Shown here in pieces: positions 2,894 to 23,677 of a DNA stretch of 64,000 nucleotides. The notes below the pieces were generated by a model. It saw nothing but the letters and a program-made list of their open reading frames with translations. It was not told the DNA's origin and did not search any database. Each line of letters begins with the position of its first letter. Positions within the stretch are counted from its first letter, which is position 1. The DNA is from Candidatus Dormiibacterota bacterium (GTDB taxonomy: Bacteria; Chloroflexota; Dormibacteria; CF-121). The DNA lies in the NCBI GenBank assembly GCA_035279665.1, contig DATEHI010000052.1:7939-71938 (forward strand), in the 5' to 3' direction. Position numbers and translations under genes: made by a program.

Positions 2894-7534
<4,641 letters not shown>

Positions 7535-7645
7535 TCTGAGTTACCAACGCTATCGATTGCGGCCGCTTCACGCCACGGACGATTGGTCCAAAAGGATGGC
7601 GTGGCGTCGTACCTTCCGCACAATGGTCGTGCGAGGTCGAGCAGG

Positions 7646-8764
7646 TTACCCGAGACGCTCCTTCAGCCAGTCGGCCATCAGCGGCCGGTATTTGTACGCG
7701 ATGTTGTTGCAGACGTGGTTGCCATCCGGGTACATCACGAGCGTCGCGTTCGGCGCCTCGCGTGCAATCCGCTCCGCCTGCGCGGGCGGAAACAAGCCGT
7801 CGCGGGCGCCATGGATCACGAGTAGTGGTTGGGTGACCTTGTCGAGGACGCCCTCGAGGTTTAGCGTGTATGCCTTGCGCTTGGCCTCGGCCTCATCCGC
7901 CGATTTCGTGTAGAAGATGTAGCCGCCTTTGGTCAGTGGGTTGATCGCGTCCCAGCACTCTCCGAGGTTGTACGGCCCGGACAGTCCGACGACGGCAAGC
8001 AGCCGCCTTTCGTGCGCCGCCGCCCTGGGGCCGTAGATCGCACCCATGCTGATCCCCATCAGGCCGATCCGGTTCAAGTCGACGCCCAGGTCATGGCGCC
8101 GCTCGAGATCGTCGACCAGCGGCGTGATCACGGATTCCCAATTGACGCGAATCGGAAAATGCACCGAGTTCTCCGACTGGCCGGGGCCGTCGATAGTCAG
8201 GGTCGCCAGACCGCGCCGGAGGAACTCCTCCTCGATGGCGAACAGCTCCTCCTTCGAGGAGTCGAGTCCCGGTACGATGAGGATGAGCGGTGGCCGGCGC
8301 ACGTCGCGAGGACGACGCAAGTGCCCCGGGATGATGTGGCTCTCGAATGGGATCTCGAGGCGCTCCGCCGGCGGGTCCAGGTGTGGAAGCGTCTTGCCGT
8401 AGACCGAGACCGAACGGTCGCGGAGCTCGCCGTGGAGCGAGAGATCCTCGAACCAGAGGAACTTCCCGAGGTGATAGCACCAGGCCGCCCGCTGGTAGGC
8501 CGCGGTGGCCGACACCATGCGCTCGTGCTGCTCGGCTTCGCGGCCGAGCGCCTCGTGCACCTCACCGACCGCCCGCCAGTTCGGGCCCCAGTCCTTCCAC
8601 TCCGTCGTCTTCCCCACGATCGTGTCGAAGTCGTTGACATCGATGCCGTTGGCCACGAAGCGCGCCCGCCAGTGATGGGCGGCGACCTGGACCCGGTTGC
8701 TCGGTAGATCTCCCTCCCCCCTTGTGGGGGAGGGTCGCGGTGGCGGGGTGGCGTGCACCGTCAT
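7646..8764 (-). CDS. Alpha/beta hydrolase fold protein (dienelactone hydrolase / S9-like)
   Basis: GISMG nucleophile elbow and alpha/beta-hydrolase core. The true start is most likely ATG at 8764..8762, overlapping the upstream gene's TGA (ATGA), not the longer 7646..8986 ORF. The first 25 codons are encoded by a palindromic repeat (PPPRPSPTRGEGD). Confidence 0.75.
   Translation of the reverse strand: MTVHATPPPRPSPTRGEGDLPSNRVQVAAHHWRARFVANGIDVNDFDTIVGKTTEWKDWGPNWRAVGEVHEALGREAEQHERMVSATAAYQRAAWCYHLGKFLWFEDLSLHGELRDRSVSVYGKTLPHLDPPAERLEIPFESHIIPGHLRRPRDVRRPPLILIVPGLDSSKEELFAIEEEFLRRGLATLTIDGPGQSENSVHFPIRVNWESVITPLVDDLERRHDLGVDLNRIGLMGISMGAIYGPRAAAHERRLLAVVGLSGPYNLGECWDAINPLTKGGYIFYTKSADEAEAKRKAYTLNLEGVLDKVTQPLLVIHGARDGLFPPAQAERIAREAPNATLVMYPDGNHVCNNIAYKYRPLMADWLKERLG
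8712..8750. repeat. Short GC-rich palindromic repeat, copy 1 (CCCTCCCCC-cttgt-GGGGGAGGG followed by G-rich tail)
   Basis: Perfect 9-bp inverted arms seen in sequence. A related copy lies at 35067..35098 and a weaker one at 1029..1059. Confidence 0.6.
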
Positions 8765-10368
8765 GTGACTTTCTCCTTCTGATGGATGGCCGCGTGGAGA
8801 CCGGAGCCGAGATCCTGCAGGAGGATGGCGGCGCAGTTCCGGCCCGGTAGACCGGACACCGACCCGCCCGGATGCGTGCACGCGCCCGTCTGATACAGAC
8901 CGTTGACCGGGGTCCGGTATGACGACCAGCCTTCGACCGGGCGGAAGTAGCCGCTCTGGTCCGGTGTGCTGGCCCCACCATGACACGATCCCCGCCAGTT
9001 CGCCGGATTCCGTCGCTCGAGGTCCAGCGGGCTTTCGACGTGTCGCGCCAGCACGATGCGCTCCGACAGATTCGTGGTCAGCGGCGCCAGCCGCTGGAAC
9101 AGGCGCGTCGCCACCTCCTCCTTGATCGCGTCCCAGTGTGGCGGGCCCTCGGCGAGTTCGTACGGGAGGAAGCTGATCAGCTTGAACGTCTGCTTGCCGG
9201 CGGGCGCGCGGGAGGCATCGACCACGGTTGGCGTGATCGCCAGGTAGACGGGGTCATCGAGCTCGACCCGCCCGGCGCGAAACGCGGTCAACATGCGATG
9301 CAGCGAGTCCAGCGATTCGAGCCCGCCCATCGTCACGCTCTCCAACGACCCGACTTCCGTCTGAAAGCGCGGCGCCTCACTCAACGCATAGTGAGCCACG
9401 AACATCGTCACGCTGGGCTTCCAGCGGGCAATTCCAGCGCGGTACTCGGGCGTGAGGTTCGCCTCTCCCACGATGCCGCTCAGATGCGCGATGTGGATCG
9501 TCGAGACCACGGCCTTCGAGGCGGAATAGCTCGAACCGTCGGCCGTGACGACGCCAGTCGCCCGTCCGCCTTCGACGACGATCCGGGTCACCGGCTTCGA
9601 TGTCAGGATGGCGCCGCCGTGCTCCCCAATGATCCGCGCGAGCGCGATGGGCAGGCGGTTCGAGCCACCCTCGGGCAGGATCCAGCTGAAGCGCTGCCGT
9701 CCCGCCACCAGCGAAAGAGCCAGCAGCCCTGTCTCCGGCTCGTCCAGTGGATGCAGCGTCATGAAGGCGATCCAGGCGAAGAAGGCGCGCACGTGCTCCT
9801 CGGCGAAACGTGCGGTGATGACATCGAGCGCGGTCGCCCGGCGGATGTCCAGCCCGCGCGCGCCGAGCGGCCCTGCCTGCGTCCGCGCCGCGACCTCAGC
9901 AGGTGGTCGGGGCGAGTTTTCCCGCTCGGCGTTCACGATCGGCGAGAGCGACTGCCAATCGGCGAGCAGCTCGCGATAGGCGTCGGCATCCGCACGCGAA
10001 AAGCGAGCCAGCTCCGCACACGTGCGATCGAGGTCGCGCCACATCGTAATGCTGCGGCCGTCGCGGAACGGCATGGTGAACACTGGATCGGGCGACAGGT
10101 AACGCAGCCCGTAGCGGTCGAGTTGCAATTCGTTGTTGCGCATCAACGGGTTGCTCTGGATCAGGTTATGCGCGGTCGCACACGAATCATGGACAAAGCC
10201 CGGCAGCGTGAGTTCCTCGGAGATTGTGTCGCCGCCGATCTGCGCGGCGGCCTCGAGAACCAGTACCTTGAAACCGGCGCGGGCGGCGTAGGCGGCGGTC
10301 AGCAGGCTGTTGTGGCCGGCGCCGGCGACAATGATGTCCCACTCGCCACCGCGGGCGGATACGCTCAA
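8761..10368 (-). CDS. FAD-dependent oxidoreductase (phytoene desaturase/CrtI-like amine oxidase family)
   Basis: N-terminal Rossmann motif DIIVAGAGHNSLLTAAYAARAGFKVLVLEA. The length (535 aa) is typical of CrtI-family flavoproteins. Confidence 0.8.
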   Translation of the reverse strand: MSVSARGGEWDIIVAGAGHNSLLTAAYAARAGFKVLVLEAAAQIGGDTISEELTLPGFVHDSCATAHNLIQSNPLMRNNELQLDRYGLRYLSPDPVFTMPFRDGRSITMWRDLDRTCAELARFSRADADAYRELLADWQSLSPIVNAERENSPRPPAEVAARTQAGPLGARGLDIRRATALDVITARFAEEHVRAFFAWIAFMTLHPLDEPETGLLALSLVAGRQRFSWILPEGGSNRLPIALARIIGEHGGAILTSKPVTRIVVEGGRATGVVTADGSSYSASKAVVSTIHIAHLSGIVGEANLTPEYRAGIARWKPSVTMFVAHYALSEAPRFQTEVGSLESVTMGGLESLDSLHRMLTAFRAGRVELDDPVYLAITPTVVDASRAPAGKQTFKLISFLPYELAEGPPHWDAIKEEVATRLFQRLAPLTTNLSERIVLARHVESPLDLERRNPANWRGSCHGGASTPDQSGYFRPVEGWSSYRTPVNGLYQTGACTHPGGSVSGLPGRNCAAILLQDLGSGLHAAIHQKEKVT

Positions 10369-10390
10369 GCGATCGCCGCCGCCGAATCAT

Positions 10391-11131
10391 TCACGCCGTG
10401 GCCCCCAGGTAGAGGCGGCCGATCTCCGGGTTGTTGAGCACCGCGGGGCCAGCGCCCTGCAGCCGCACCCGGCCGCTTTCCATGACGACGCCGTGCGTCG
10501 CCAGTCCGAGTCCGGACCGTGCGTTCTGCTCGACCAGCAGGATGGTTCGTCCCGCCTGGTTCATGGCGCGGATGGTGTCGAAGACAACGGTGCGCGTCTT
10601 CGGGTCGAGACCCATCGAGGGCTCGTCGAGGACTACGAGGGCGGGATCGAGCATCAGCGCCCGCGCGAACTCCACGATCTTCTGCTGCCCGCCAGAGAGC
10701 GACGCGGCAGGTTCGTGACGTCGCTCGCGCACGATGGGAAAGCTCTCGCAGACGGCACCCAGCCGGCGCTCAACGAGCCCGCGATCGCGCACCGTGTAGG
10801 CACCCATACGAACGTTCTCCCACACCGTCATCGTCGGAAAGAGGCTTCGCTCCTGCGGCACCTGCACGACGCCGCGGCGCAAGATCGCCGGCGGGCTGAG
10901 CCCGACGATGGATGCGCCGCGAAAGCGGATACGGCCGAGGCGCGGTCGCAGCAACCCGCTGATCACGCGCAGCACCGTCGACTTCCCGGCCCCGTTGGGC
11001 CCGACGATGCAAGTGATGGCCCCATCCTCAACCGTGAGGTCGAGCTCATGGAGGATATCGCCCCCGCCGTAGCCGGCGGTCACGCCTTCGAGCTCGAGCA
11101 GCGCCCCCATCTCAGGCTCCCAGGTAGGCAT
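10391..11131 (-). CDS. livF: Branched-chain amino acid ABC transporter ATP-binding protein (LivF type)
   Basis: Walker A GPNGAGKST, ABC signature LSGGQQ and Walker B LLDEPS. Position in a livJHMGF-order operon. Confidence 0.9.
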   Translation of the reverse strand: MPTWEPEMGALLELEGVTAGYGGGDILHELDLTVEDGAITCIVGPNGAGKSTVLRVISGLLRPRLGRIRFRGASIVGLSPPAILRRGVVQVPQERSLFPTMTVWENVRMGAYTVRDRGLVERRLGAVCESFPIVRERRHEPAASLSGGQQKIVEFARALMLDPALVVLDEPSMGLDPKTRTVVFDTIRAMNQAGRTILLVEQNARSGLGLATHGVVMESGRVRLQGAGPAVLNNPEIGRLYLGATA

Positions 11132-11843
11132 CGAGCACGGCTGGATTCTCGCGCACCTCGCTGGGCTTGCCGCTCGCGATCACGCGGCCCCGGTGCAGGA
11201 CCACGACCTCGTGGCACAGGTTCATCACGAAGCTCATGTTGTGCTCGACCAGCAGGAAGGTCACGCCCTGCCCATTCAGCTGCCTGATGTGTTCGGCAAT
11301 CCGCTCGAGCAGCACCGGGTTGACCCCGCCGGCGGGCTCATCGAGCAACACCAGTTCCGGCTGCGCCATCATCACCGCGGCCAGTTCCAGCAGCTTGCGC
11401 TGCCCGTACGACAGCGCACCACCGAGCGTGCCCGCGACTCGACTGATGTCCATGAACTCCAACATCTGCATCGCCCGCGCCTTCTCGTGGCCCCACTGTC
11501 CATGGGAAAGCAGCGCGCGCAACCCCGCACGCCGCACCGGTACCAGCATGTTCTCCAGCGCCGTCAGCCGTGGAAAGATGCGGGCCAGCTGGAAGGTGCG
11601 TCCGATACCCAGCCCGTAGATGCGGTCGGGGCCCAGGCCGGTGATCGACCGCGACTTGAATCGCACGTCGCCGCCGTCTCGCGGCAGGAAGCCGGTCACC
11701 AGGTTGAAAACGGTCGTCTTCCCGGAGCCGTTCGGACCGATCAGCCCGGTGATGCTGCCGGCCGGAACCGAGAGCGAGCACGAGTCGACCGCCACCACAC
11801 CACCGAAGCGCTTGGAGAGGTCCTGGATTTCGAGCAGGCTCAT
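11112..11843 (-). CDS. livG: Branched-chain amino acid ABC transporter ATP-binding protein (LivG type)
   Basis: Walker A GPNGSGKTT and signature LSYGQRK. Start taken at MSLLEIQDL (ATG 11843), which overlaps the livM stop (ATGA). The longer ORF to 11903 is an upstream extension. Confidence 0.9.
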   Translation of the reverse strand: MSLLEIQDLSKRFGGVVAVDSCSLSVPAGSITGLIGPNGSGKTTVFNLVTGFLPRDGGDVRFKSRSITGLGPDRIYGLGIGRTFQLARIFPRLTALENMLVPVRRAGLRALLSHGQWGHEKARAMQMLEFMDISRVAGTLGGALSYGQRKLLELAAVMMAQPELVLLDEPAGGVNPVLLERIAEHIRQLNGQGVTFLLVEHNMSFVMNLCHEVVVLHRGRVIASGKPSEVRENPAVLDAYLGA

Positions 11844-12886
11844 GGTGATGTGGCCCGGTGCTCTGCCGGCGTTGCCACGTCCTGTCGGGCACCGACGCGC
11901 CAACGGTGGAAGAGGTCCGCGAGCGAGGGAACGATCCCCCGGGGGAGGAAGAGGATCACGATCAGAAAGACCGCCGAAAACAGCAACAGGTAGAGCCGGC
12001 TAGCCCCGAAGCGATAGGCAAACTCCAGCTGTGCACGCTCGAGGAGCACCGCCCCGATCACCGGCCCGCTGAGCGTTCCGAGACCACCGAGGAAGGTCAT
12101 CAGCACCATCGAGATGCCGAGCAGCGGATCCACCACGAACTGCGGGTACAGGTAAGTGACGTAATAACCGTAGACGGCGCCGATCATGCCTACCAGCGTC
12201 GCGCTGATGACGAAGGCGGTGAGCTTGAACGCGCGCGTCGGCACGCCCACCGCCAGCGCCTTGTCCTCATCGTCGCGGATCGCGAGCAAGCCGAGCCCGA
12301 ACTTGGAGCGGCGAATCCACCAGGACAAGGCGAGCCCGAGGACCGCCAATGCGAGCATCGCGTAATAGAAGGGGATGTTGAAGAAATCACCCGTCCAGTC
12401 GTGAGGGTAGGGAACGCTCAGGCCGGCGCCACCTCCAGTGAGCTTGACAAGGTTTTCCGCCAGCAACTGCACGATGAACATGAAGGCGATGGTGACGATG
12501 ACAAAGGTCGCGGCCCGGGTGCGCAGCGCGATCCAGCCGATCCCGACCGCGGCCACCGCCGTCAGAAAGCCGGCGACCGGCACCAGCAGGAAGGGCGCGT
12601 AGCCCGGCGTGATGTTGAGGTGGATCAACAGCAGGCCGAACGAATAGGCACCGATCCCGAAGAATGCCGCGTGACCGAGGGAGATGTAACCGGTGTAGCC
12701 GCCCATGACGTTCCAGGCGGTTGCCAGCCCCACGTACATCACCGTGAAGACGGCGATGTTGGTGGTCGCCGGGTCGGGCGCGATCACGGGCAGGAACAGC
12801 GCGAAGGCGGCGAGCACGACCAGGCTGAGCGCCTTGAGTGCGGTCGTTTGACCGCTTCTCAGCCTGAGCGTGGGGATGGCGGTCAT
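11840..12886 (-). CDS. livM: Branched-chain amino acid ABC transporter permease (LivM type)
   Basis: Polytopic membrane protein with LivM-like conserved region (YISLGHAAFFGIGAYS). Confidence 0.9.
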   Translation of the reverse strand: MTAIPTLRLRSGQTTALKALSLVVLAAFALFLPVIAPDPATTNIAVFTVMYVGLATAWNVMGGYTGYISLGHAAFFGIGAYSFGLLLIHLNITPGYAPFLLVPVAGFLTAVAAVGIGWIALRTRAATFVIVTIAFMFIVQLLAENLVKLTGGGAGLSVPYPHDWTGDFFNIPFYYAMLALAVLGLALSWWIRRSKFGLGLLAIRDDEDKALAVGVPTRAFKLTAFVISATLVGMIGAVYGYYVTYLYPQFVVDPLLGISMVLMTFLGGLGTLSGPVIGAVLLERAQLEFAYRFGASRLYLLLFSAVFLIVILFLPRGIVPSLADLFHRWRVGARQDVATPAEHRATSP

Positions 12887-13758
12887 ATTCGATCACGCAC
12901 GCGCACGCCATAGAGGCCCTGCGGTCGCGCGATCAGGACGGCGACCAGAATGACGAAAAACACGAAGTTGGCCCAGACCGGCGAGACCAGGACGGCGGTG
13001 ATGTCTTCGGTGACCAGCATGACCAGCGCGGCGACGACGGCCCCGCGCAGACTTCCCAGGCCACCGAGCACGATGATGGTGAGAAGGCGCGAGATCAGAT
13101 CGTAGTGGCTGCCCGGGTTGAACGCATTGGTGATGCCGAACACCACGCCGCCGGCCGCCGCGGTCGCGACCCCGACGCCGAAGGCGAGCGCGGCGACTCG
13201 GTCGACGTCGATGCCGATCAACTGCGCCGCGGTTCGGTTGAGCATTGTCGCCCGGATAGCTCCGCCGAATGCGGTGCGGTAGAGCATCAAGAACAGCGCC
13301 CCCAGGATCGCGAGGCAAAGCACGAAGCCGAAGACATAGACATAGGTGATGCGGAAACCGAAGATCGGAAAGCTGGCGGTCTCGTACCAGGCCCGCAACT
13401 GGACGTAGTTGGTGCTGAAGAAATAACCGAGGACGCCCTCGACGCCAAGGGCGATCGCGTAGGTCACGAGTACGGACAGCGCTTCGCGGTCCGTCCTGAG
13501 CGGGCGAATGAACGCCAGCTGCAAGACGACGCCCAGCGCGAACATGGCCGGCATGGTGACCACCAGGCTGAGGAACGGGTCGATGTGGAAGGAGCGGAAG
13601 AGCGCGAAGCTGAGGTAGGCGCCGAGCACCACCAGCGCGCCGTGGCCGACGTTGATGATGCGCATCACGCCGAAGATCAAGGTGAGCCCCGAGGCCATGA
13701 GCGCGTAGACCCCGCCCGTCAGGATGCCGAGGGCCGCGGCCTGAAGGACGAGGCTCAT
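12883..13758 (-). CDS. livH: Branched-chain amino acid ABC transporter permease (LivH type)
   Basis: LivH-like N-terminus MSLVLQAAALGILTGGVYALMASGLTLIFGVMRIINVGHG. About 8 TM segments. Confidence 0.9.
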   Translation of the reverse strand: MSLVLQAAALGILTGGVYALMASGLTLIFGVMRIINVGHGALVVLGAYLSFALFRSFHIDPFLSLVVTMPAMFALGVVLQLAFIRPLRTDREALSVLVTYAIALGVEGVLGYFFSTNYVQLRAWYETASFPIFGFRITYVYVFGFVLCLAILGALFLMLYRTAFGGAIRATMLNRTAAQLIGIDVDRVAALAFGVGVATAAAGGVVFGITNAFNPGSHYDLISRLLTIIVLGGLGSLRGAVVAALVMLVTEDITAVLVSPVWANFVFFVILVAVLIARPQGLYGVRVRDRI

Positions 13759-13818
13759 CGCGGAAGCAAGCGAAAGATGAGGGGACGGCGCCTGCTGGTC
13801 ACCGTCCCCTCAGCCTAA

Positions 13819-15045
13819 CTAAGGCCAGTTCGGCTTCGGAAACTCGGGCTTGTTGGAGCCGGCCACGGTCGGGGGATAGACAAAGACTGCCTGGCCGGAT
13901 TGCCATTGTTCGATGTAGACGCCCACGCCACCCTGCGGCTTGCCCGTACTGTCGAAGGACATGGGGCCCTGGATCGTCTGGTAGGTCCCCGAATGCAAGG
14001 CGATGATCAGCTTCGAGTTCTCGATGCTGTTCGCCTTCTTGGCCGCCTGCTCGACCACCTGGCCAACACTGTAGGCCTCGGCGGCGTCGGCGCTGATGCC
14101 GCCAGCCGTACCGCCGTACTTGGCGATGAACTCGCTGACGAACTGGCTGTTGCCATAGGCGGTGGCATCAGACGTCCAGCCGGCCGGCACCATCACACCC
14201 TCGTCCGCCGAACCCACCTTGTCGGAGAAATCCTTGCCCTGGTCCGGGCCGGTGGTTTCGATCAGCGACTTGGGGTTGTAGTGCTGTTGCTGGAAGACCT
14301 TGATGAAGGCGACGGCGTCGGGGATCTGTGTTCCCAGGATCACGACGTCGGCATTCGCATGGATCATCTGCAGGGCGATCGGCGTGAAGTCCGTCGTCTC
14401 CGCTGGATATACCTTGTACCCACCGGACGGTGTGGTGATCCCGCCGGCCTCGAGCAGGGCCTTGGCCTTGTCGACTTGCGGCTGGGTGAAGGGATCATCC
14501 TGCGTCGCGTAGGCGGCGGTCTTCGGGCGCTGGCTGCTGGGGAGTCCGAGCAGCCATTTCGTATAGCTCACGAGGTTGTCTTCGACGGCCGCCGGCTGCA
14601 CGAAGAAAATGGACTTCAGGCCGCGGTTGAAGACGGCCGGACCGCCGCCGGCCGGCTCGGGAAAGGCGTAGCCATAACGGTCAGTGACCGTGGAGGCCGG
14701 GATCGTCAGCAGCGAGCTGAACGGTCCGAAGACCAACGCCACCTTCTCCTGCGTGATCAGGTTTGTATAGTTCGTGACCACCTGCTGCTGGCTGCTGGCG
14801 TCGTCGACGTATTTCATGGTTACCTGGTGCCCGAGCAGTCCGCCCTTCTTGTTGACGTCCTGCATCCACAGGTCATACCCCTGCTCCAGCGCTTTCCCGT
14901 CGGTCGAGAAGTCGCCGCTCAGCGATACGGAGACTCCGATCGTAATCGGCGCCTGGGGTGACGCGGTCGTGCTCGCCGTTGAGCTGCCGCACGCTGATAG
15001 AACCAGGGCGAACCCGGCCACGATCATCGACACGGGCTTACGCAT
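13819..15045 (-). CDS. livJ: ABC transporter substrate-binding lipoprotein, Leu/Ile/Val-binding (type I PBP) family
   Basis: Lipoprotein signal peptide with lipobox LSAC. PBP-I fold motifs (ITIGVSVSLSGDFS, KYVDDASSQQ). First gene of the liv operon. Confidence 0.88.
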   Translation of the reverse strand: MRKPVSMIVAGFALVLSACGSSTASTTASPQAPITIGVSVSLSGDFSTDGKALEQGYDLWMQDVNKKGGLLGHQVTMKYVDDASSQQQVVTNYTNLITQEKVALVFGPFSSLLTIPASTVTDRYGYAFPEPAGGGPAVFNRGLKSIFFVQPAAVEDNLVSYTKWLLGLPSSQRPKTAAYATQDDPFTQPQVDKAKALLEAGGITTPSGGYKVYPAETTDFTPIALQMIHANADVVILGTQIPDAVAFIKVFQQQHYNPKSLIETTGPDQGKDFSDKVGSADEGVMVPAGWTSDATAYGNSQFVSEFIAKYGGTAGGISADAAEAYSVGQVVEQAAKKANSIENSKLIIALHSGTYQTIQGPMSFDSTGKPQGGVGVYIEQWQSGQAVFVYPPTVAGSNKPEFPKPNWP

Positions 15046-15107
15046 GCTCCCTCCCTTCGGGCCAGAATCGACTCATTCTTTTGGCTCAGCCGGTTTGTTC
15101 TTGCATT

Positions 15108-15123
15108 GAACAAACGATTGTTC
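15108..15123. promoter_or_regulatory. Candidate LacI-family operator (GAACAAACGATTGTTC) in the divergent livJ/lacI promoter region, flanked by extra TTGTTC half-sites (15095..15100)
   Basis: Near-palindrome with central CG seen in sequence. It shares the core CAAACG(A/T)TTG with the perfect palindrome at 17372..17385. Confidence 0.35.
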
Positions 15124-15166
15124 TATGTTAGGCACGGGTCATACGATTGTCAATGAGGACGCGAGC

Positions 15167-16222: not shown

Positions 16223-16232
16223 TGACACTGCA

Positions 16233-17171
16233 ATGGTAAGCAATCGTTTGCGCACACTCGGCTGGATTGGGACGGGGCGAATGGGATCGGTACTCGCCAC
16301 CCGCCTGCTGGAGCACGGCTGCGACCTGACGGTCTACAACCGCACTCGGGCCAAGGCCGAAGCACTGGCGCAGCACGGCGCGCGCATCGTTGATCAGCCG
16401 GCGGACCTGCGCGACCGCGACATCGTCATCACCTCCGTCGCGGGATCCCGTGACTTCGCCGAGGTGATGACCGGGCCGCACGGTCTCCTCGCGAACGGCA
16501 GCCGGGTGCCCGCGATGGTGATCGACACGTCCACCGTTTCGATGGACGTCTCGCAAACGATCCGTCAGAAGGCGGCCGAGCTCGGTGCGGCGCTGCTCGC
16601 GGCGCCGGTCAGCGGCAACCCGAAGGTCGCGCGCGCCGGCAAGTTGAGCCTGGCCGTGTCGGGGCCACGCCAGGCGTTCGAAGACGCGCTGCCCTACCTG
16701 GAGATGCTGGGAAAGAGCGTGACCTATGTCGGTGAGGGCGAGGCGGCCAGGCTGGTCAAGATCTGCCACAACCTCATCCTGGGCGTCGTCACGCAGATCC
16801 TCGCCGAGACAATCATCCTCGCGGAACGCGGCGGCATCAGCCGCGCCGACTACCTCGCGTTCATCAACGACAGTGTGATGGGCTCGACATTCAGCCGCTA
16901 CAAGACGCCTGCATTCGTCAGCCTCGATTTCACGCCGACCTTCACCGGCCACTTGCTGCGGAAGGACTTTGAACTCGGTTTGGACGCCGCGCGCCAGCTC
17001 GACGTTCCGTTGCCGGTCGCGGCCCTCACCCACCAGATCGTCGTCAGCCTTATCGAGAACGGCCTGGGCGAGGTCGATTTTGCCGCGCTCCTCGAGCTCG
17101 AGGCCCGTGGAGCGAATCTCCACCTGGCTCCGGAGGCACGCGAGATGTCGGACGGACTCGAGGCAGACTAA
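16233..17171 (+). CDS. NAD(P)-dependent oxidoreductase, 3-hydroxyisobutyrate / 6-phosphogluconate dehydrogenase-like (HIBADH family)
   Basis: Dinucleotide-binding motif LGWIGTGRMGSVLATRLLEHGCDLTVYNRT and a HIBADH-like C-terminal domain. Start at MVSNRL, 10 bp after the lacI stop. Confidence 0.85.
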   Translation: MVSNRLRTLGWIGTGRMGSVLATRLLEHGCDLTVYNRTRAKAEALAQHGARIVDQPADLRDRDIVITSVAGSRDFAEVMTGPHGLLANGSRVPAMVIDTSTVSMDVSQTIRQKAAELGAALLAAPVSGNPKVARAGKLSLAVSGPRQAFEDALPYLEMLGKSVTYVGEGEAARLVKICHNLILGVVTQILAETIILAERGGISRADYLAFINDSVMGSTFSRYKTPAFVSLDFTPTFTGHLLRKDFELGLDAARQLDVPLPVAALTHQIVVSLIENGLGEVDFAALLELEARGANLHLAPEAREMSDGLEAD

Positions 17172-17337
17172 CCCGACGCGCGGTCCGCGATGGACGCACC
17201 ACCAGGGCGGAGCGGCGCTACAGACAACCGCTCTGCGCCGGTATCCGTATCGCCGCCCCCTTCGCCGCCCTGGCACTCGGGGATAGCACGTCGCGAACCC
17301 CTCGCTGACCGCCATGCTAACCACCCCCATTTGATCT

Positions 17338-17385
17338 GTCAAAGGTTTGGCCATACCGCCCTTTTCTGCGTGCCAAACGTTTGGC
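17338..17385. promoter_or_regulatory. Two operator-like palindromes: imperfect gtCAAAgGTTTGgcc (17338..17352) and perfect 14-bp GCCAAACGTTTGGC (17372..17385)
   Basis: Perfect palindrome with central CG seen directly. It lies upstream of the truncated LacI paralog and the M24/E1/ALDH operon. Confidence 0.35.
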
Positions 17386-17499
17386 GCCCGTTAACCTCAG
17401 CCGCGCGGGGTTGCGGAGCGTTGCTTCCGATGCATACCCCTCACCAGCGGTTAACGTTGGACCAGGGCGCTGAGCGCCTGGGTGATGGCAGGGCGGGGC

Positions 17500-18292
17500 G
17501 ACGGGTGGGCGAACGCAACGCGCGCCGGGGGCGGACGATCGTGACCCTGGAGGAGGTTGCTCGGGCAGCGGGCGTTCACTATTCGTGGATCGGATCCTCA
17601 ATCACCTCTTGAGCCGGCGGGTCGACGCCATCATCCTGACCGGTGCGCGAATCCGCGACGCACCCAGACTGCGCCAGATCCGGCGTCAAGGCATCCCGCT
17701 TGTGCTGGTGGTTCAGGATGTTCCCGGGATCCGCTTGCCGGCCGCCATCAATGACGACTTCCTCGGCGGCGTGCTGGCGGCTAAACATCTCCTCTCGCTC
17801 GGGCACCGGCGCGTCGCCCAACTGCGCGGACCGCCGGACCTCAACTCCTGCGTCTTGCGTGCCCGGGGTTTCAGCAAGACGATTGCGGCCGCGGGCGCCG
17901 TGGAAGTCGCCCTTCGGTCCACGGCCCCCACGGGATCACCCGACGAGGGTCGTTTCCTGATGGGGAAGCTCCTCGATCGCAAGGGACCGAGGCCATCCGG
18001 GATCTTCGCGCATCATGACCTGATGGCCTTCGGCGCGCTCACCGCGGCGGAGGAGCGAGGCTTGCTGGCTCCGAAGGACCTGTCGATGATCGGCTATCAC
18101 GATCTGCCGCACGATGAGCGCATCGTGCCGCCGCTCACCTCCATCCGACAACAGCGCGAGAAAATCGGCCGGACCGCCGCACAGTTTCTCGTAGAAATGC
18201 TCAGGCCGCCGGGCCGGGCGCCGGCCCCTCGACGGCTCGCCCCCGAGCTGGTGGTGCGCCAATCGACCGGTCCGCCTCCAGCCATTCGTTAA
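17500..18292 (+). pseudogene. Truncated/frameshifted LacI-family regulator paralog (HTH disrupted, about 85 codons deleted)
   Basis: An HTH remnant RTIVTLEEVARAAGVH is in one frame (17190..17612 ORF). It then switches frame near 17580 into a LacI ligand-binding domain starting at the position equivalent to ...RRVDGVIL... of the intact paralog at 15167..16222. No intact DNA-binding domain remains. Confidence 0.5.
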
Positions 18293-18294
18293 CC

Positions 18295-19566
18295 TTGAGC
18301 GCGGTGGCACGAACGAAATCCGAGTTCACCGTGACCTCCGTCCCCGCACCGGGGCGGATGCACGTCGATTGGGAGGAACGGGTCGATTTCCGCCGCCTCC
18401 ACGACTACCGGCTGGGACGCACCCGCCAGGCGATCGCGAATGCCGGCCTCGGTGCGGTGCTGGTCTTCGACATGAACAACATCCGCTACATCACCAGCAC
18501 CACCATCGGCGAGTGGGCGCGCGACAAGATGGCTCGCTTCGCGCTGCTGACCCGGGGCGGCGACCCGATCCTGTGGGATTTCGGCTCGGCGGCGAAGGCG
18601 CATCGCCTGCACGCGCCCTGGCTGCGGCCAGAGAATTCTCGAGCCGGAATGACGGGTCTACGTGGGTCCGTTGCCCCCGATGCGGGCCTCTCGGATGACG
18701 TCGCGATGACCGTAAAGGACCTGATGCGCGAGCAAGGCGTCGCCGGCGAGCCGCTTGGCGTCGACATCGCCGAGCTGCCGATGGTCTTCGCGCTGGAGAA
18801 GGCGGGCATCAACGTCGTCGATGCGCAGCAGGCGATGCTCGACGCGCGACAGATCAAGTCCCAGGACGAGATCACGCTGCTCAGCATGTCGGCCGCGCTC
18901 GTCGATGGCGTCTACCAGACGATCTACGAAGTGTTGAAGCCGGGCATCCGCGAGAACGAGATCGTCGCGATTGCCAACAAGCAGCTCTACGACATGGGCT
19001 CCGACGATGTCGAGGCGATCAATGCCGTGTCGGGCGAGCGTTGCAGCCCGCATCCTCATGTCTTCTCCGATCGCCTCATCCGGCCCGGCGACCAGGCGTT
19101 CTTCGACATCATCCAGGCCTACAACGGCTATCGCACCTGCTACTACCGGACCTTCAACGTCGGCCGCGCGACGCAGAGCCAGCGCGACGCCTACAAGAAG
19201 GCGCGCGAATGGATCGATGCGGGGATCGACATGGTGAAGCCCGGGGTCACGACCGACATGATCGCCCGGGCCTGGCCGAAAGCGCAGGATTTCGGCTTCG
19301 AGAACGAGATGGAGGCCTTCGGCCTACAGTTCGGGCACGGCCTTGGGCTGGCGCTGCACGAACGACCGATCATCAGCCGCCTCACTTCGCTCGACCACCC
19401 GGTCGAACTGAACGAGGGCATGGTCTTCGCCCTGGAAACCTATTGCCCGGCGTCGGACGGCCATTCGGCGGCGCGCATCGAGGAGGAAATCGTGGTGACG
19501 GCGACGGGGCACGAGGTGATCACCCTCTTCCCCGCCGAGGAGCTCGTCATCGCGAACGCCTATTGA
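18295..19566 (+). CDS. M24-family metallopeptidase (creatinase / Xaa-Pro dipeptidase / ectoine-hydrolase-like)
   Basis: Creatinase-type N-terminal domain followed by a pita-bread catalytic domain with metal ligands (DxxxD...H...E...E pattern). Start uncertain: TTG at 18295 or ATG at 18358. Confidence 0.8.
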   Translation: MSAVARTKSEFTVTSVPAPGRMHVDWEERVDFRRLHDYRLGRTRQAIANAGLGAVLVFDMNNIRYITSTTIGEWARDKMARFALLTRGGDPILWDFGSAAKAHRLHAPWLRPENSRAGMTGLRGSVAPDAGLSDDVAMTVKDLMREQGVAGEPLGVDIAELPMVFALEKAGINVVDAQQAMLDARQIKSQDEITLLSMSAALVDGVYQTIYEVLKPGIRENEIVAIANKQLYDMGSDDVEAINAVSGERCSPHPHVFSDRLIRPGDQAFFDIIQAYNGYRTCYYRTFNVGRATQSQRDAYKKAREWIDAGIDMVKPGVTTDMIARAWPKAQDFGFENEMEAFGLQFGHGLGLALHERPIISRLTSLDHPVELNEGMVFALETYCPASDGHSAARIEEEIVVTATGHEVITLFPAEELVIANAY

Positions 19567-19586
19567 GCACCCAGGTCGGTCGGCCC

Positions 19587-20576
19587 GTGGAGGATGAGGT
19601 GGACCGCCCAACGCAGCTGCGCCTTTATCGATTGATGGTCGAGCTGCGCGATTTCGAGCAGCGCGCCTACGAGCTGTTCCTCGAGAACCTGGTGCGCGGC
19701 ACGAGCCACCTGGCGCTCGGGCAGGAGGCCATCGCCGCCGGCTACGCGGTGGCGATGCGCGCCGATGACTACACCTTCTGCACCTATCGCGGTCACGGCC
19801 ACACCCTCGCTCGCGGCGCGTCGATGGCCGGCGCGCTGGCCGAGCTGATGGGGCGTGGCAACGGCATGCTCCACGGCAAGGGCGGGTCGATGCACCTTAC
19901 CGACGTCACGCATGGGGCCATGGGGTCCTACGCGATTGTCGGCGCGCACCTGCCGATCGCGGCCGGCGCCGCCTGGTCGGCGCAGGTTCGCAAGTCCGGA
20001 CAGGTCGCGGTCTGTTTCTTTGGCGACGGGACGACCAACATCGGCGCCTTTCACGAAGCCCTCAACCTGGCGGTGATCTGGAAGCTGCCGGTGGTCTTTT
20101 GCTGCGAGAACAACCAGTACATGGAGTACACGCCGATTCGATCGGTGACCGCTGTCGAGCATCCGGCCGCCGACCGCGCCTCGGCCTACGGCCTCGACGC
20201 AATCCTGGTCGACGGCAACGATGCCGACGTGATGTACGAGACGGCGAGGCAAACGATCGGCAAGGCTCGCAACGGTGGCGGCCCCTCGCTGATCGAGGCC
20301 CTCACCTATCGGCACGGTGGTCACTCGCGCGCCGATCCCGCCAAGTACCGGCCGGAGGCCGAGGTGCAGGAATGGCTCGGCCGCGACCCGGTGAAGCGCT
20401 ACCGCGAACGGCTGCAGGCCGCCGGCATCGGCGAGGCCGAGCTCAACGAGATCGATACCCGCGCTCAGCAGAAGGTGGACGCGGCGACCGATGAGGCGCG
20501 CAAGGGTGCCCCGGCCCGGGTCGCCGAGATCGAACGCCAGGTCTGGAGTGACGGAGGCGCAGCATGGCGGAACTGA
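19587..20576 (+). CDS. Thiamine-diphosphate-dependent 2-oxoacid dehydrogenase E1 component, alpha subunit
   Basis: Conserved YRLMVELRDFE...GQEA...YRGHG... and TPP-binding GDG(X)nNN (FFGDGTTNIGAFHEALNLAVIWKLPVVFCCENNQY). GTG start at 19587 after the M24 stop. The longer 19041 ORF overlaps the preceding gene. Confidence 0.85.
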   Translation: MEDEVDRPTQLRLYRLMVELRDFEQRAYELFLENLVRGTSHLALGQEAIAAGYAVAMRADDYTFCTYRGHGHTLARGASMAGALAELMGRGNGMLHGKGGSMHLTDVTHGAMGSYAIVGAHLPIAAGAAWSAQVRKSGQVAVCFFGDGTTNIGAFHEALNLAVIWKLPVVFCCENNQYMEYTPIRSVTAVEHPAADRASAYGLDAILVDGNDADVMYETARQTIGKARNGGGPSLIEALTYRHGGHSRADPAKYRPEAEVQEWLGRDPVKRYRERLQAAGIGEAELNEIDTRAQQKVDAATDEARKGAPARVAEIERQVWSDGGAAWRN

Positions 20577-21538
20577 GTTTCCGCGAGGCGATCGCGGCCG
20601 GCATCGCGCAGGAGATGGAGCGGGACCCGATGGTCTACTTCATCGGCGAGGACGTCGGCGCCGCCGGCGGTGTCTTCAAGGCGACGGTCGGGCTATTCGA
20701 ACGCTTCGGCCCGGAACGCGTGCGCGATACGCCGATCTCGGAGCAGGCGATCATCGGCGCCGCGATGGGAGCGGCGATGACCGGTCTTCGGCCGGTGGCC
20801 GAGATCATGTTTTCCGATTTTCTCGCGACCTGCTGGGACATGATCGCGAACCAGGTGGCCAAGACGCGCTACATGACGGACGGCCAGGTCTCGCTCCCGC
20901 TCGTGATCCGGACCGCCAACGGCGGTGGCACACGCTTCGGCGCGCAACACTCGCAGAGCCTCGAGAACTGGGGCATGGCGGTGCCAGGCTTGAAAGTCGT
21001 CGCGCCCTCGACACCCGCCGACGCCAAGGGCTTGCTGGCGGCTGCCATCCGCGACCCGGACCCGGTGCTCTTCTTCGAGCAGAAATCGCTCTACGGCGTC
21101 AAGGGCCAGGTCCCGGACGGCGAGCATGTCGACCGCCTCGGGACGGCGAACGTGCTTCGGAATGGGAAGGATTGCACCATCGTGGCGCTAGCTGCGATGG
21201 TGCCCAGGGCGATGCAGGCCGCCGAGAAACTCGAAGACCTGGACATCGACGCGACCGTTGTCGATGTCCGCAGCCTGGTGCCGCTCGATACGCGGATGAT
21301 CCTCGCGGAAGTCATCAAGACCGGCCGGCTCTTCACGGTCGAGGAGAACCCGCGACTCTGCGGCTGGGGCGCCGAGATCGCCTCGATCGCAGCCGACGAG
21401 TGCTTCGACGACCTGGACGGCCCCATCGTCCGCATCACGACGCCGCACGTCCCGCTGCCGGCCGCCGACGTGCTGGAGGATGTGGCCATGCCGTCGGTGG
21501 AGCGCATCGTCGCGACCGTGCGAAAATCAATGAAATGA
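20564..21538 (+). CDS. 2-oxoacid dehydrogenase E1 component, beta subunit (transketolase-like)
   Basis: MAELSFREAIAAGIAQEMERDPMVYFIGEDVG... is typical of E1-beta. It overlaps the alpha gene by 13 nt. Confidence 0.9.
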   Translation: MAELSFREAIAAGIAQEMERDPMVYFIGEDVGAAGGVFKATVGLFERFGPERVRDTPISEQAIIGAAMGAAMTGLRPVAEIMFSDFLATCWDMIANQVAKTRYMTDGQVSLPLVIRTANGGGTRFGAQHSQSLENWGMAVPGLKVVAPSTPADAKGLLAAAIRDPDPVLFFEQKSLYGVKGQVPDGEHVDRLGTANVLRNGKDCTIVALAAMVPRAMQAAEKLEDLDIDATVVDVRSLVPLDTRMILAEVIKTGRLFTVEENPRLCGWGAEIASIAADECFDDLDGPIVRITTPHVPLPAADVLEDVAMPSVERIVATVRKSMK

Positions 21539-22992
21539 CCCCTGTCAGTGAGCTGATCTCCGTCCGCCATACCGACCTCTACCTCAATGGCTCCTGGGGC
21601 CCGGCCGCCGACGGCCAGCGGATCGATGTCCAGGACCCGGCGACCGGCGAGGTGATCGCGACCGTCGCCAGTGCCGCGGTGCAGGATGCGCTCGCGGCCG
21701 TGCAGGCTGCCGCGGACGCCTTGCGACCCTGGGCCGCCAGGCCGCCCCGGCAGCGCGCCGAGATCCTGCGCAAGGGCTTCGAGCTGATGATGCGCGACCA
21801 GGAAAAACTCGCGGAGTTGATGGTCCGCGAGAACGGCAAGCCGATGGCCGAGGCGCGCGGCGAGGTCGCCTACGCGGCCGAGTTCTTCCGTTGGTTCTCC
21901 GAAGAAGCCGTGCGGAATATCGGCTCGGTGTCGATCTCGCCCAGCGGTGCCAACCGCATCCTGGTCGAGCACCAGCCGATCGGGGTGTCCGTGCTGGTCA
22001 CGCCCTGGAATTTCCCGGCGGCGATGGCCACCCGAAAGATCGGACCTGCCCTGGCCGCCGGCTGCACCGTCGTGTTGAAGCCGGCATCGGAAACGCCGCT
22101 GACGGCGCTGGCGATTGCGGACCTCCTCGAGCAGGCCGGCGTGCCGAAGGGGGTCGTCAACGTGATTCCGTCGAAGCGCTCGTCGGAAGTGGTCAAGGCC
22201 ATGCTGAAAGATCCGCGGGTGCGCAAGCTCTCCTTCACGGGCTCGACCGAGGTAGGGCGCATCCTGCTGGCGCAGGCGGCGGAGAATGTGATCAGCTGCT
22301 CCATGGAGCTGGGCGGCAATGCGCCGTTCATCGTGCTGGCGGACGCCGACCTGGATGCCGCGCTCGAGGGTGCGATGGTCGCCAAGATGCGAAACACCGG
22401 GCAGTCGTGCATCGCCGCCAACCGGTTCTACGTCGAGGCGCCGGTCGCGGAGAAGTTCTCGACGATGCTGGCGCGTGCCATGGGCGCCTTATCGATAGGC
22501 TCGGGCATGGATCCCGACGTCAAGGTCGGGCCGGTCATCAACCAACCCGCCCGCGAGAAGATGCTGGGATTGGTCGCGGAAGCGGCGGGGCATGGGGCCC
22601 GGGTGCTGACCGGAGGCAGCGCGCCGAACCGACCAGGGTATTTCGTCCCACCCACGGTGCTGAGCGAAGTTCCACCCGATGAACACATCCTCAAAGAGGA
22701 AATCTTCGGGCCGATCGCGCCCGTCGTCACCTTCCGCGATGTCAACGAAGCCATCGAGTTTGCGAACCGGACCGACCGTGGCCTGGCCTCCTACGTTTAT
22801 ACGCGCGACCTGGCGAAAGGCCTGGCGATCGCCGAGGCGATCGAGTCCGGGATGGTCGGCCTCAACCGCGGCTTCATCTCGGATCCCGCTGCCCCCTTCG
22901 GCGGCGTGAAGCAGAGCGGCGTCGGTCGCGAGGGTTCGCACGAGGGTCTGCTCGAGTTCCTCGAAACCAAGTACATCGCGACCAACTGGTAG
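21535..22992 (+). CDS. NAD(P)+-dependent aldehyde dehydrogenase, succinate-semialdehyde dehydrogenase (GabD)-like
   Basis: ALDH motifs VTPWNFPAAMATRKIGPALAAGCTVVLKPASETP and catalytic Cys in GQSCIAANR. ATG at 21535 overlaps the E1-beta stop (ATGA). The 833-aa ORF from 20491 is a frame artefact. Confidence 0.9.
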   Translation: MTPVSELISVRHTDLYLNGSWGPAADGQRIDVQDPATGEVIATVASAAVQDALAAVQAAADALRPWAARPPRQRAEILRKGFELMMRDQEKLAELMVRENGKPMAEARGEVAYAAEFFRWFSEEAVRNIGSVSISPSGANRILVEHQPIGVSVLVTPWNFPAAMATRKIGPALAAGCTVVLKPASETPLTALAIADLLEQAGVPKGVVNVIPSKRSSEVVKAMLKDPRVRKLSFTGSTEVGRILLAQAAENVISCSMELGGNAPFIVLADADLDAALEGAMVAKMRNTGQSCIAANRFYVEAPVAEKFSTMLARAMGALSIGSGMDPDVKVGPVINQPAREKMLGLVAEAAGHGARVLTGGSAPNRPGYFVPPTVLSEVPPDEHILKEEIFGPIAPVVTFRDVNEAIEFANRTDRGLASYVYTRDLAKGLAIAEAIESGMVGLNRGFISDPAAPFGGVKQSGVGREGSHEGLLEFLETKYIATNW

Positions 22993-22995
22993 GCG

Positions 22996-23439: not shown

Positions 23440-23445
23440 AGCACG

Positions 23446-23655
23446 ATGAATCTCTTCCGGTCGGAAGAGCACATTACACGCTGGCTCGGGGGACGCAACC
23501 CTGGGGCGACCACAAGCGTCACGAAACTCAGCGAGCTGGCGCATGCCTGGTGGGCTGACCGGCTGTCGCCGGATTGGGTCCCGCACACGCGCGATCAGAA
23601 CCAGGCGATTCTCGATCGCCTGGGATTGACCGGCGAGTCGTGGAGGCTGCCCTAG
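23446..23655 (+). CDS. Small ORF in the same frame as, and 2 codons downstream of, the MerB-like gene (possible C-terminal remainder)
   Basis: Same reading frame (both positions are 1 mod 3). The combined length (147+69 aa) roughly matches full-length MerB (about 212 aa). Confidence 0.35.
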   Translation: MNLFRSEEHITRWLGGRNPGATTSVTKLSELAHAWWADRLSPDWVPHTRDQNQAILDRLGLTGESWRLP

Positions 23656-23677
23656 GCTCGCCGCCACGGCAACAACA

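Follow-up and report, generated by a model that had tools for sequence, protein, structure and literature searches.

A putative LacI-controlled catabolic gene cluster with an unusual M24 hydrolase in Dormibacterota, and its relatives across phyla

The gene cluster described here lies at positions 7646-22992 of a 64,000-nucleotide stretch of Candidatus Dormiibacterota DNA (contig DATEHI010000052.1, positions 7,939 to 71,938, assembly GCA_035279665.1; hereafter the window). In it, a lacI gene separates a Liv-type ABC importer, a flavin adenine dinucleotide (FAD)-dependent oxidoreductase and an alpha/beta hydrolase from a dehydrogenase of the 3-hydroxyisobutyrate dehydrogenase (HIBADH) family, an M24 hydrolase, a thiamine pyrophosphate (TPP)-dependent E1 alpha/beta pair and a GabD-like aldehyde dehydrogenase (ALDH). 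Parts of this inventory recall described systems. The acetoin/2,3-butanediol system (AcoA, AcoB, AcoC, AcoL, butanediol dehydrogenase and AcoD) is alike in its TPP-dependent E1 alpha/beta of the pyruvate dehydrogenase (PDH)/acetoin type, in the E2/E3 genes that several orthologous clusters carry in cis, in a partner dehydrogenase matching acetoin reductase/butanediol dehydrogenase and in the tight linkage of ALDH to E1. However, aco operons have no counterpart of the M24 enzyme that is constant in the cluster, and the cluster has a succinate-semialdehyde-type rather than an acetaldehyde-type ALDH, a LacI regulator rather than AcoR and a dedicated ABC importer; the window, in addition, has a HIBADH-type enzyme instead of a short-chain dehydrogenase/reductase (SDR), and no E2/E3. 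Ectoine degradation (DoeA/EutD, DoeB, DoeC and DoeD) likewise combines an M24-fold hydrolase bearing a creatinase-like N-domain with a C4-semialdehyde ALDH, but the cluster lacks a deacetylase and an aminotransferase, contains additional E1 and HIBADH-type enzymes, and uses other regulators and transporters.

Single enzymes of the cluster also have described relatives. Among solved structures and NCBIfam models alike, the dimethylsulfoniopropionate (DMSP) lyase DddP is the best-scoring match of the M24 protein and aligns with it over the full length; the match is clearly distant (89 bits to structure 4S01), the second Asp ligand is a Cys in the M24 protein of the cluster, and many carriers of the cluster belong to soil phyla, in which no DMSP would be expected. 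The 2,6-dihydroxypseudooxynicotine (DHPON) hydrolase of the nicotine pathway (pAO1), AntI and Ayg1 align with the alpha/beta hydrolase over its full length and share its Ser-Asp-His triad, but the cluster has no nicotine-pathway genes and couples the hydrolase to a CrtO-like flavoprotein and an ABC importer. The arginine oxidase/transaminase route (DauA or AruH, AruI, KauB and GbuA), which proceeds by amine oxidation, TPP-dependent decarboxylation, aldehyde oxidation and amidino hydrolysis, offers a functional analogy only: all of its enzymes belong to other families (AruI is acetolactate synthase [ALS]-like and GbuA arginase-like), and the regulator and the sugar-type contexts differ.

We read the locus as a single LacI-controlled catabolic regulon of two divergent operons, the Dormibacterota version of an uncharacterised cross-phylum module that would act on a hydroxylated, probably nitrogen-containing compound, and we put the probability of this reading at roughly 0.55. 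The conserved core of the module comprises the unusual M24 enzyme, an NAD(P)-dependent hydroxy-acid or vicinal-diol dehydrogenase (HIBADH-type in the window and, among marine Proteobacteria, an acetoin-reductase-like SDR), the TPP-dependent E1 and the GabD-like ALDH; the transporter is exchanged between taxa, and many loci include a LacI-type regulator. In other Dormibacterota the stretch from the hydrolase gene to the E1 beta gene is syntenic, at 70-93% amino-acid identity, and the core recurs across phyla. The arrangement is therefore far beyond chance, and the comparison of gene neighbourhoods, which the earlier note on this DNA had proposed as a check, supports reading the genes as one unit.

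To survey the M24 protein, a query alignment of six sequences was searched against a genome set with a single representative of each GTDB species. A relative is encoded at 599 or more places in this set, the best 80 being 64-93% identical and belonging to Dormibacterota, Actinomycetota, Acidobacteria, Rokubacteria/Methylomirabilia, Chloroflexota and Alpha- (including Pelagibacteraceae), Beta- and Gammaproteobacteria. Actinomycetota carriers are Nonomuraea, Planotetraspora, Kibdelosporangium and Streptomyces, and a second protein search extended the list to Vibrio crassostreae, Psychromonas ingrahamii, Legionella spiritensis, Marinobacter and Salinisphaera, whose proteins share 80-96% identity with a Halopseudomonas orthologue. 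The nearest database relatives of the window's own M24 protein are proteins from Candidatus Dormibacterota or Chloroflexota metagenome-assembled genomes.

Partner genes were counted in the 46 loci with at least 6 kb on both sides of the M24 gene, using tblastn, since greedy open reading frame (ORF) calling gave antisense artefacts in high-GC loci. A partner dehydrogenase is encoded at 31 of these loci (25 with a HIBADH orthologue at 43% identity or more, six with an SDR), a TPP-dependent E1 at 23 (17 of the window type, five with fused alpha and beta subunits, one of the Phaeobacter type) and a GabD-like ALDH at 13, the ALDH orthologues being 57-92% identical and placed after M24 or E1. LacI was found at 17/46, a Liv-type substrate-binding protein (SBP) orthologue at 9/46, an E2 at 8/46, a ribose-type ABC transporter at 6/46, the hydrolase at 5/46 and the FAD enzyme at 4/46. 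Uptake systems are swapped by taxon among Liv-type, ribose-type, Bug/TTT and TonB-receptor systems, and the regulators are LacI or ROK proteins.

Gene order at individual loci bears directly on the integrity of the cluster. In an Actinomycetes locus (L016), the genes for SBP, LivHMGF, HIBADH-type enzyme, M24, E1 alpha, E1 beta and ALDH follow one another on a single strand, with a divergent lacI next to them, and the two halves that flank lacI in the window therefore belong together. Liv-type SBP orthologues (41-52% identity) lie on the same strand as, and next to, the HIBADH or M24 gene in L016 and in five further loci of Actinomycetota and Acidobacteria (L009, L011, L021, L062 and L082), and the hydrolase gene adjoins Liv or M24 genes in L009, L011, L014, L036 and L082. 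At loci of Actinomycetota and Acidobacteria, hydrolase orthologues (40-44% identity) neighbour the M24 gene, and orthologues of the FAD enzyme at 42-43% occur in L014, L024 and L036; outside its own phylum, the M24 gene is accompanied by the hydrolase in three phyla and by the FAD gene in two. Together with a conserved operator-like site described below, the consecutive order in L016 and the co-travelling of hydrolase and FAD genes with M24 uphold the earlier assignment of both sides of lacI to one pathway.

The E1 genes had been described as an orphan pair lacking E2 and E3 partners, which is true in the window but not in several other taxa. Phaeobacter plasmids carry the order SBP-SDR-M24-E1 alpha-E1 beta-lipoyl protein-ALDH-E2 core-LpdA, which Pacificitalea and Marinovum share as far as the E2 core, and Psychromonas ingrahamii carries Rbs-type ABC-LacI-M24-ALDH-fused E1 alpha/beta-VOC-E2-E3-SDR. 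The orphan state of E1 is thus lineage-specific, since the clusters of Phaeobacter and Psychromonas include both E2 and E3, and the window has neither. Legionella spiritensis has SDR-M24-E1 alpha-E1 beta-lipoyl protein-ALDH-LacI. In Psychromonas, Phaeobacter, Legionella and a Rhodococcus plasmid, at most one gene separates E1 from ALDH, and the identity between the E1 alpha of Phaeobacter and that of the window is only 39%. The occurrence of three non-orthologous kinds of E1 argues that the TPP step is integral to the pathway, and non-orthologous displacement at three positions (dehydrogenase, E1 and transporter) argues that each of these steps is needed. In the absence of the HIBADH orthologue, the place beside the M24 gene is taken by an SDR with 57-72% conservation, and the best family matches of the Phaeobacter copy are acetoin reductase/2,3-butanediol dehydrogenase models. 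Full-text searches of a literature library found no description of this cluster; the P. gallaeciensis genome paper limits its mention of pGal_E78 to "pyruvate dehydrogenase E1 and E2".

Three further arrangements were observed around the E1 and ALDH genes. On a plasmid of Rhodococcus sp. USK13 (L093, 8506-11955), an ALDH, an E1 alpha (58% identity) and an E1 beta form a trio without E2 in otherwise unrelated surroundings (a Rieske dioxygenase, kinases and an arylsulfatase), so that ALDH and E1 alpha/beta travel as a pair elsewhere too. In Pelagibacteraceae (L046, L058 and L069; positions 826-19708 in L058), SDR-M24-E1 alpha-E1 beta-ALDH lies inside a sugar island with a ribose-type ABC transporter and IolE-, IolG-, IolC-, IolB- and IolJ-like genes; no iolD-like (ALS-type TPP enzyme) gene is present among the annotated ORFs of this SAR11 island. 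A link to the inositol pathway was considered and rejected: iol genes occur at no other locus, and in SAR11 they were taken as neighbours of the module rather than as part of the pathway. In six Dormibacterota loci (L001-L005 and L072; 13231-14975 in L001), the genes after E1 beta encode a PfkB kinase and a pseudouridine-5'-phosphate glycosidase (Indigoidine_A/PsuG), a combination not seen after E1 beta outside Dormibacterota among the loci examined; within the phylum, the ALDH occurs only in the window and in L006.

The M24 "pita-bread" hydrolase (18295-19566, plus strand) scores 129.1 bits against Pfam PF00557 Peptidase_M24 (cut-off 23), with a Creatinase_N domain marginally below its cut-off. 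It falls far short of the models for characterised relatives, scoring 118.3 bits against DddP (NF043017, cut-off 600) and 87.8 against DoeA/EutD (TIGR02993, cut-off 613), and has no close similarity to creatinase (33.9 bits to PDB 7YTO). Alignment to prolidases and DddP places its metal site at D271, C282, H348, E381 and E396. Relative to the canonical M24 ligand set of Asp, Asp, His, Glu and Glu, four of the five ligands are kept and the second Asp of prolidases is replaced by Cys282, in the motif GYRTCYYRT. This Cys is at least 90% conserved among 28 homologues, down to 31% identity. The protein represents a distinct, strongly conserved M24 subfamily, for which we found no characterised member.

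Orthologues and more distant homologues of the M24 protein were also seen in other settings. In six alphaproteobacterial loci, several of them from Xanthobacteraceae (L041, L056, L057, L063, L078 and L084), a 67-68% identical orthologue has a short MetE-like (Meth_synt_2) protein encoded directly upstream and mostly a divergent benzoate-CoA-ligase-like gene; some of these loci (e.g., L056 and L057) carry a 39-41% identical ALDH that is not the GabD-like orthologue. A plasmid of Paenarthrobacter sp. R1 (L088, 9594-14458) encodes a 58% paralogue in a RidA-M24-NAD(P) oxidoreductase-SDR-LpdA block that adjoins the sulfonamide-degradation flavin reductase SulR/SadC and transposases; the sulfonamide sad paper does not mention this paralogue. 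A 38% archaeal homologue on Haloferax volcanii pHV4 (L089, 4034-14077) neighbours an ALS-like TPP enzyme, an epimerase-type oxidoreductase, EthD proteins and hydantoinase/oxoprolinase A and B, a suggestive TPP link in a context that is nevertheless not interpretable. Homologues in Sinorhizobium are 29-30% identical and therefore too distant for transfer of transportome data.

Genes in the window were called by ORF listing and translation, with Pfam and NCBIfam scans and PDB sequence matches; every gene that the earlier note had named is present, and the scans back each family call. The HIBADH-family NAD(P) dehydrogenase for beta- or gamma-hydroxyacids (16233-17171, plus strand) shows NAD_binding_2 (125.6 bits) and NAD_binding_11 (73.3 bits) together with a GxGxxG motif (GTGRMG) and the catalytic Lys motif (KICHN) of the family. 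It reaches no specific equivalog cut-off: its best NCBIfam match is tartronate semialdehyde reductase (169.6 bits, cut-off 340.75), followed by HIBADH itself at 152 bits (cut-off 291.6). Its PDB relatives are 2-(hydroxymethyl)glutarate dehydrogenase (3CKY) and the HIBADH-family structures 3DOJ, 3PEF and 3PDU, of which 3DOJ and 3PEF are gamma-hydroxybutyrate/succinic-semialdehyde dehydrogenases.

The E1 alpha (19587-20576) and E1 beta (20564-21538) genes, both on the plus strand, encode the two subunits of a 2-oxo acid/acetoin dehydrogenase-type E1. E1 alpha matches Pfam E1_dh (244.8 bits) and contains the TPP motif GDG-X26-NN; E1 beta, with Transket_pyr and Transketolase_C domains, scores 367 bits against NF006667, above its cut-off of 321. 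E1 alpha stays below the cut-off of the PDH E1 alpha model (TIGR03182, 322.8 bits against 393.85) and is nearer to human PDHA1 (189 bits) than to BCKDHA (~111 bits), and its identities to annotated AcoA (39-44%) and PdhA (38-40%) do not discriminate between the two. The ALDH (21535-22992, plus strand) is of the succinate-semialdehyde type, scoring 580.1 bits against TIGR01780 (cut-off 646.35), 542.8 against the GabD model (cut-off 828) and 497 against Escherichia coli GabD (3JZ4). It has the catalytic motifs ELGGNAP and RNTGQSC and, in ATRK and RNTGQSC, the two Arg residues that bind the distal carboxylate of succinate semialdehyde in human succinate-semialdehyde dehydrogenase. Models of MmsA-type methylmalonate-semialdehyde dehydrogenase are absent among its 25 best NCBIfam matches.

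On the minus strand, the importer is encoded by genes for a LivJ-like type-I substrate-binding lipoprotein (13819-15045), LivH-like (12883-13758) and LivM-like (11840-12886) permeases, both matching Pfam BPD_transp_2, and LivG-like (11112-11843; ABC_tran and BCA_ABC_TP_C) and LivF-like (10391-11131; ABC_tran) ATPases. The SBP has the general Peripla_BP_6 fold (160.9 bits), a lipobox-like LSAC at its N-terminus and Atu2422 as its top PDB match (70 bits), and its score against the LivJ-type model NF011933 (71.8 bits, cut-off 477) leaves it outside LivJ/LivK. LivF is 82% identical in relatives. The genes for the FAD-dependent oxidoreductase (8761-10368; Pfam Amino_oxidase and NAD_binding_8) and the alpha/beta hydrolase (7646-8764; Pfam FrsA-like) continue this strand. 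Most gene junctions in the cluster are overlaps of 4-13 nt, and those of start and stop codons are real for FAD/hydrolase (ATGA), livM/livG, livH/livM, E1 alpha/E1 beta and E1 beta/ALDH, with the LivM gene overlapping each neighbour by 4 nt. The proposed extension of the liv operon through overlapping codons accordingly stands for the FAD/hydrolase junction and not for livF and the FAD gene, which are 22 nt apart in the window; relatives have a 4-nt overlap there instead.

The FAD protein is below the cut-off of the beta-carotene ketolase CrtO equivalog (NF045689, 285.7 bits against 1000), scores 107.7 bits against crtI_fam and has phytoene desaturase 4DGK as its top PDB match, and is thus best assigned to the CrtI/CrtO superfamily only. 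In the PDB the hydrolase matches 2JBW best (E 2.5e-42, full length), with AntI and Ayg1-like chains next, and Ser (GISMG), Asp (HGARDG) and His (GNHVC) are kept at the triad positions of 2JBW. The protein can be placed in the DHPON hydrolase/AntI/Ayg1 family of C-C hydrolases, with a predicted C-C cleavage activity; the DHPON hydrolase, AntI and Ayg1-type enzymes are retro-Claisen C-C hydrolases. The FAD oxidoreductase and the retro-Claisen-type hydrolase are accessory steps of some lineages only.

The LacI-family repressor (15125-16222, plus strand; Pfam LacI HTH and Peripla_BP_3/1) probably starts at the ATG at 15167 and is 73-83% identical in relatives. Its best NCBIfam matches, CytR, RbsR and PurR, are all below cut-off. 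By sequence, the locus has the features expected of the family, namely an N-terminal helix-turn-helix (HTH) and a type-I periplasmic-binding-protein-like effector domain in the regulator and a palindrome centred on CG. This 16-bp palindrome, GAACAAACGATTGTTC (15108-15123, strand-neutral), was spotted by eye and confirmed by pattern search, an inverted-repeat tool having missed it, and is the sole exact match in the window. Versions of GAACAAACGATTGTTC with at most two mismatches occur at the equivalent place between SBP and lacI in L001-L005, L006, L008 and L072, and the position is kept in four other Dormibacterota lineages, suggesting a putative LacI operator in a shared divergent promoter. 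A consensus scan found a sigma-70-like promoter (TTGACA-17 nt-TAACAT, 15125-15153, minus strand) that faces the transporter operon, with the palindrome directly downstream; since 1.6 such sites are expected in shuffled sequence, the promoter-like site by itself is weak evidence. A hairpin-forming repeat, GTTTGTTC-N7-GAACAAAC (15093-15115), overlaps the palindrome, which brings the GAACAA(A/T)-type half-sites in the region to three. An Rfam scan of 7000-24000 detected neither a riboswitch nor any other RNA family.

The earlier note had missed a LacI pseudogene that separates the HIBADH and M24 genes (~17495-18292, plus strand) and was recognized by three-frame reading and by blastn against L006. 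An HTH start at ~17495 is followed by a ~268-bp deletion and a frameshift, and then by an intact C-terminal effector-domain ORF (17585-18292), which could still give an HTH-less effector-domain protein. The pseudogene is only ~36% identical to the main LacI, and in L006, the closest relative, its place is taken by a tandem pair of intact LacI genes (7568-8821 and 8892-9998).

From the association of these genes, which is observed, we infer their chemistry as follows. The Liv-type ABC importer would take up a small hydroxylated, probably nitrogen-containing compound, sugar-acid-like or hydroxy-acid-like and possibly a conjugate; the M24 enzyme, with its Cys-for-Asp metal site, would hydrolyse a C-N (amide or amidine) bond; the HIBADH-type enzyme, or an SDR in its place, would convert a hydroxyl to a carbonyl; E1 alpha/beta, acting like the E1 of pyruvate or acetoin dehydrogenase, would use TPP to cleave the resulting 2-oxo acid or acyloin; and the GabD-like ALDH would turn a succinate-semialdehyde-like aldehyde into a dicarboxylate. 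The E2/E3 partners of E1 would act in trans, encoded elsewhere in this genome, and in cis in other taxa. Acetoin-dehydrogenase-type cleavage yields an acyl-CoA and an aldehyde and is, to our knowledge, the only textbook reaction that needs E1, E2/E3 and ALDH together; where E2 is absent, a plain decarboxylase followed by ALDH is a possible route. The exchangeable uptake systems and the LacI/ROK regulators suggest that the substrate is a small hydroxylated, carboxylated, partly sugar-like compound, possibly a conjugate.

Several observations count against this reading. Ten of the 46 M24 loci have no partner at all, and the M24 gene also occurs in other contexts (with CoA ligase and MetE-like genes, or with Bug SBP and GST genes). 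Most Dormibacterota relatives lack the ALDH and have PfkB and PsuG instead. No E2/E3 homologue is encoded alongside E1 in the 64-kb window, as judged by tblastn, nor within 10 kb on either side of the cluster in Dormibacterota relatives, and E1 here could therefore be a plain decarboxylase. A role for an M24 enzyme in a sugar-like context is without precedent, and the AlphaFold model of the M24 protein (22 close homologues; pLDDT 58.7) was too poor for a fold search. The LacI operator was assigned from its sequence, and the substrate class and the activities given here for the cluster members are predictions.

A bolder account holds that the cluster encodes an unrecognised cross-phylum pathway for a ubiquitous substrate, in which the M24 enzyme performs chemistry new for its fold and E1(E2E3) and the semialdehyde dehydrogenase cleave a sugar- or hydroxy-acid-derived acyloin or 2-oxo acid, pantothenate or pantoyl amides being a concrete candidate substrate. 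We advance it tentatively, as the less probable view. All enzyme families of the cluster are already known, and identities of 64-93% from Dormibacterota and Actinomycetes to SAR11, roseobacters, Vibrio, Psychromonas and Legionella imply a common substrate in the environment, the turnover of which has yet to be explained. Were it found, thousands of genes now annotated as "Xaa-Pro peptidase", "E1 component" or "NAD(P)-dependent oxidoreductase" would gain a function, M24 enzymes with Cys for Asp in the metal site would be defined as a new subfamily, and an orphan pathway might be filled; several cultured carriers hold full clusters, making the question directly testable.

Catabolism of a nitrogen-containing osmolyte or of a guanidino or ureido compound (ectoine, creatine or a guanidino acid), which the earlier note had favored, now appears improbable. 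The M24 enzyme would open or de-amidinate the substrate, the FAD enzyme or another step would produce a 2-oxo acid, an E2-less E1 would decarboxylate it and the ALDH would oxidise the product, by analogy with AruI-KauB-GbuA or DoeA-DoeC. Consistent with this, among characterised M24 proteins DddP, DoeA and prolidases come closest (creatinase being farther), the importer is Liv-type, the FAD protein matches the Amino_oxidase family, the ALDH is succinate-semialdehyde-type and shares its superfamily with DoeC, the corresponding enzyme in ectoine catabolism, E1 alpha/beta and ALDH occur without E2 both here and on the Rhodococcus plasmid, and a RidA gene lies beside the 58% M24 paralogue of Paenarthrobacter. 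However, the M24 scores lie far below the DoeA (87.8 against 613) and DddP cut-offs, with only 33.9 bits to creatinase and one metal ligand changed, the FAD gene is present at just 4/46 loci, and neither the cluster nor its relatives contain DoeB, DoeD, aminotransferase, urease or sarcosine oxidase genes. Orthologous clusters elsewhere carry ribose-type ABC transporters, LacI or ROK regulators, acetoin-reductase-like SDRs and E2/E3, and the first three of these features point away from classical amino-acid osmolytes.

We see little chance that the specific substrate is pantothenate or another pantoyl (or 4-hydroxyacyl) amide, with the M24 enzyme as pantothenase, the HIBADH-type enzyme as pantoate 4-dehydrogenase, the ALDH as an aldopantoate dehydrogenase yielding dimethylmalate, and E1(E2E3) acting on the 2-oxoisovalerate formed from it. 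The chemistry fits the four core enzymes: pantoate can be viewed as a substituted 4-hydroxybutyrate and aldopantoate as a substituted succinate semialdehyde, which would fit the pairing of HIBADH-type and succinate-semialdehyde-type dehydrogenases, and a conjugate of a sugar-acid-like moiety with an amino acid could explain the interchange of Liv, Rbs, TTT and TonB systems. The hydrolase gene is, moreover, still an orphan, the pantothenase gene having been unknown in 2023 (PMC10393543). On the other hand, none of ~90 loci has a gene of the isopropylmalate/tartrate-dehydrogenase family (Iso_dh) for the dimethylmalate step, a beta-alanine transaminase is lacking, E1 alpha is nearer PDH than branched-chain 2-oxo acid dehydrogenase (BCKDH), and the proposal is one of pattern fitting.

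Comparably slight is the likelihood that two unrelated operons for different substrates, transporter-FAD-hydrolase and HIBADH-M24-E1-ALDH, flank lacI by chance. The operons are divergent with only one operator-like site found, and FAD and hydrolase genes are missing from most M24 loci; yet that single palindrome between both operons is conserved, and Liv-type orthologues adjoin HIBADH/M24 genes on the same strand in Actinomycetota and Acidobacteria. Least credible of all is ordinary uptake of branched-chain amino acids feeding distal valine degradation (BCKDH E1, 3-hydroxyisobutyrate dehydrogenase and methylmalonate-semialdehyde dehydrogenase) beside a housekeeping peptidase, since the family-level names that suggest it (Liv-type ABC, E1 alpha/beta, HIBADH family, ALDH and M24 peptidase) are contradicted by the SBP and HIBADH scores (71.8 against 477 and 152 against 291.6 bits), a GabD-like ALDH with no MmsA-type model among its 25 best matches, an E1 alpha nearer PDH, the absence of acyl-CoA dehydrogenase, hydratase or hydrolase genes from the cluster, the LacI regulator, an M24 enzyme without one canonical metal ligand and the company of sugar-type transporters elsewhere. 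The SBP, HIBADH, ALDH and E1 scores thus agree with the original view of a catabolic locus distinct from a plain branched-chain amino acid importer with BCKDH.

The window as a whole has a G+C content of ~66%. On the hydrolase side the cluster is directly adjoined by a DUF222/HNH endonuclease gene (1108-2523) and gltB, encoding a glutamate synthase large subunit of 1546 aa (2894-7534); gltB lies outside the synteny conserved in relatives. The genes downstream of the ALDH gene, within 23678-25060, 25721-26875, 26880-28873, 28883-30577 and 46896-47777, are unrelated to the cluster. They comprise leuD and leuC, both assigned from their translations alone, together with genes for a secreted Ycf48/BNR-like protein, a GT28/MGT-type glycosyltransferase and a PucR-family regulator and, farther away, a leuB homologue.

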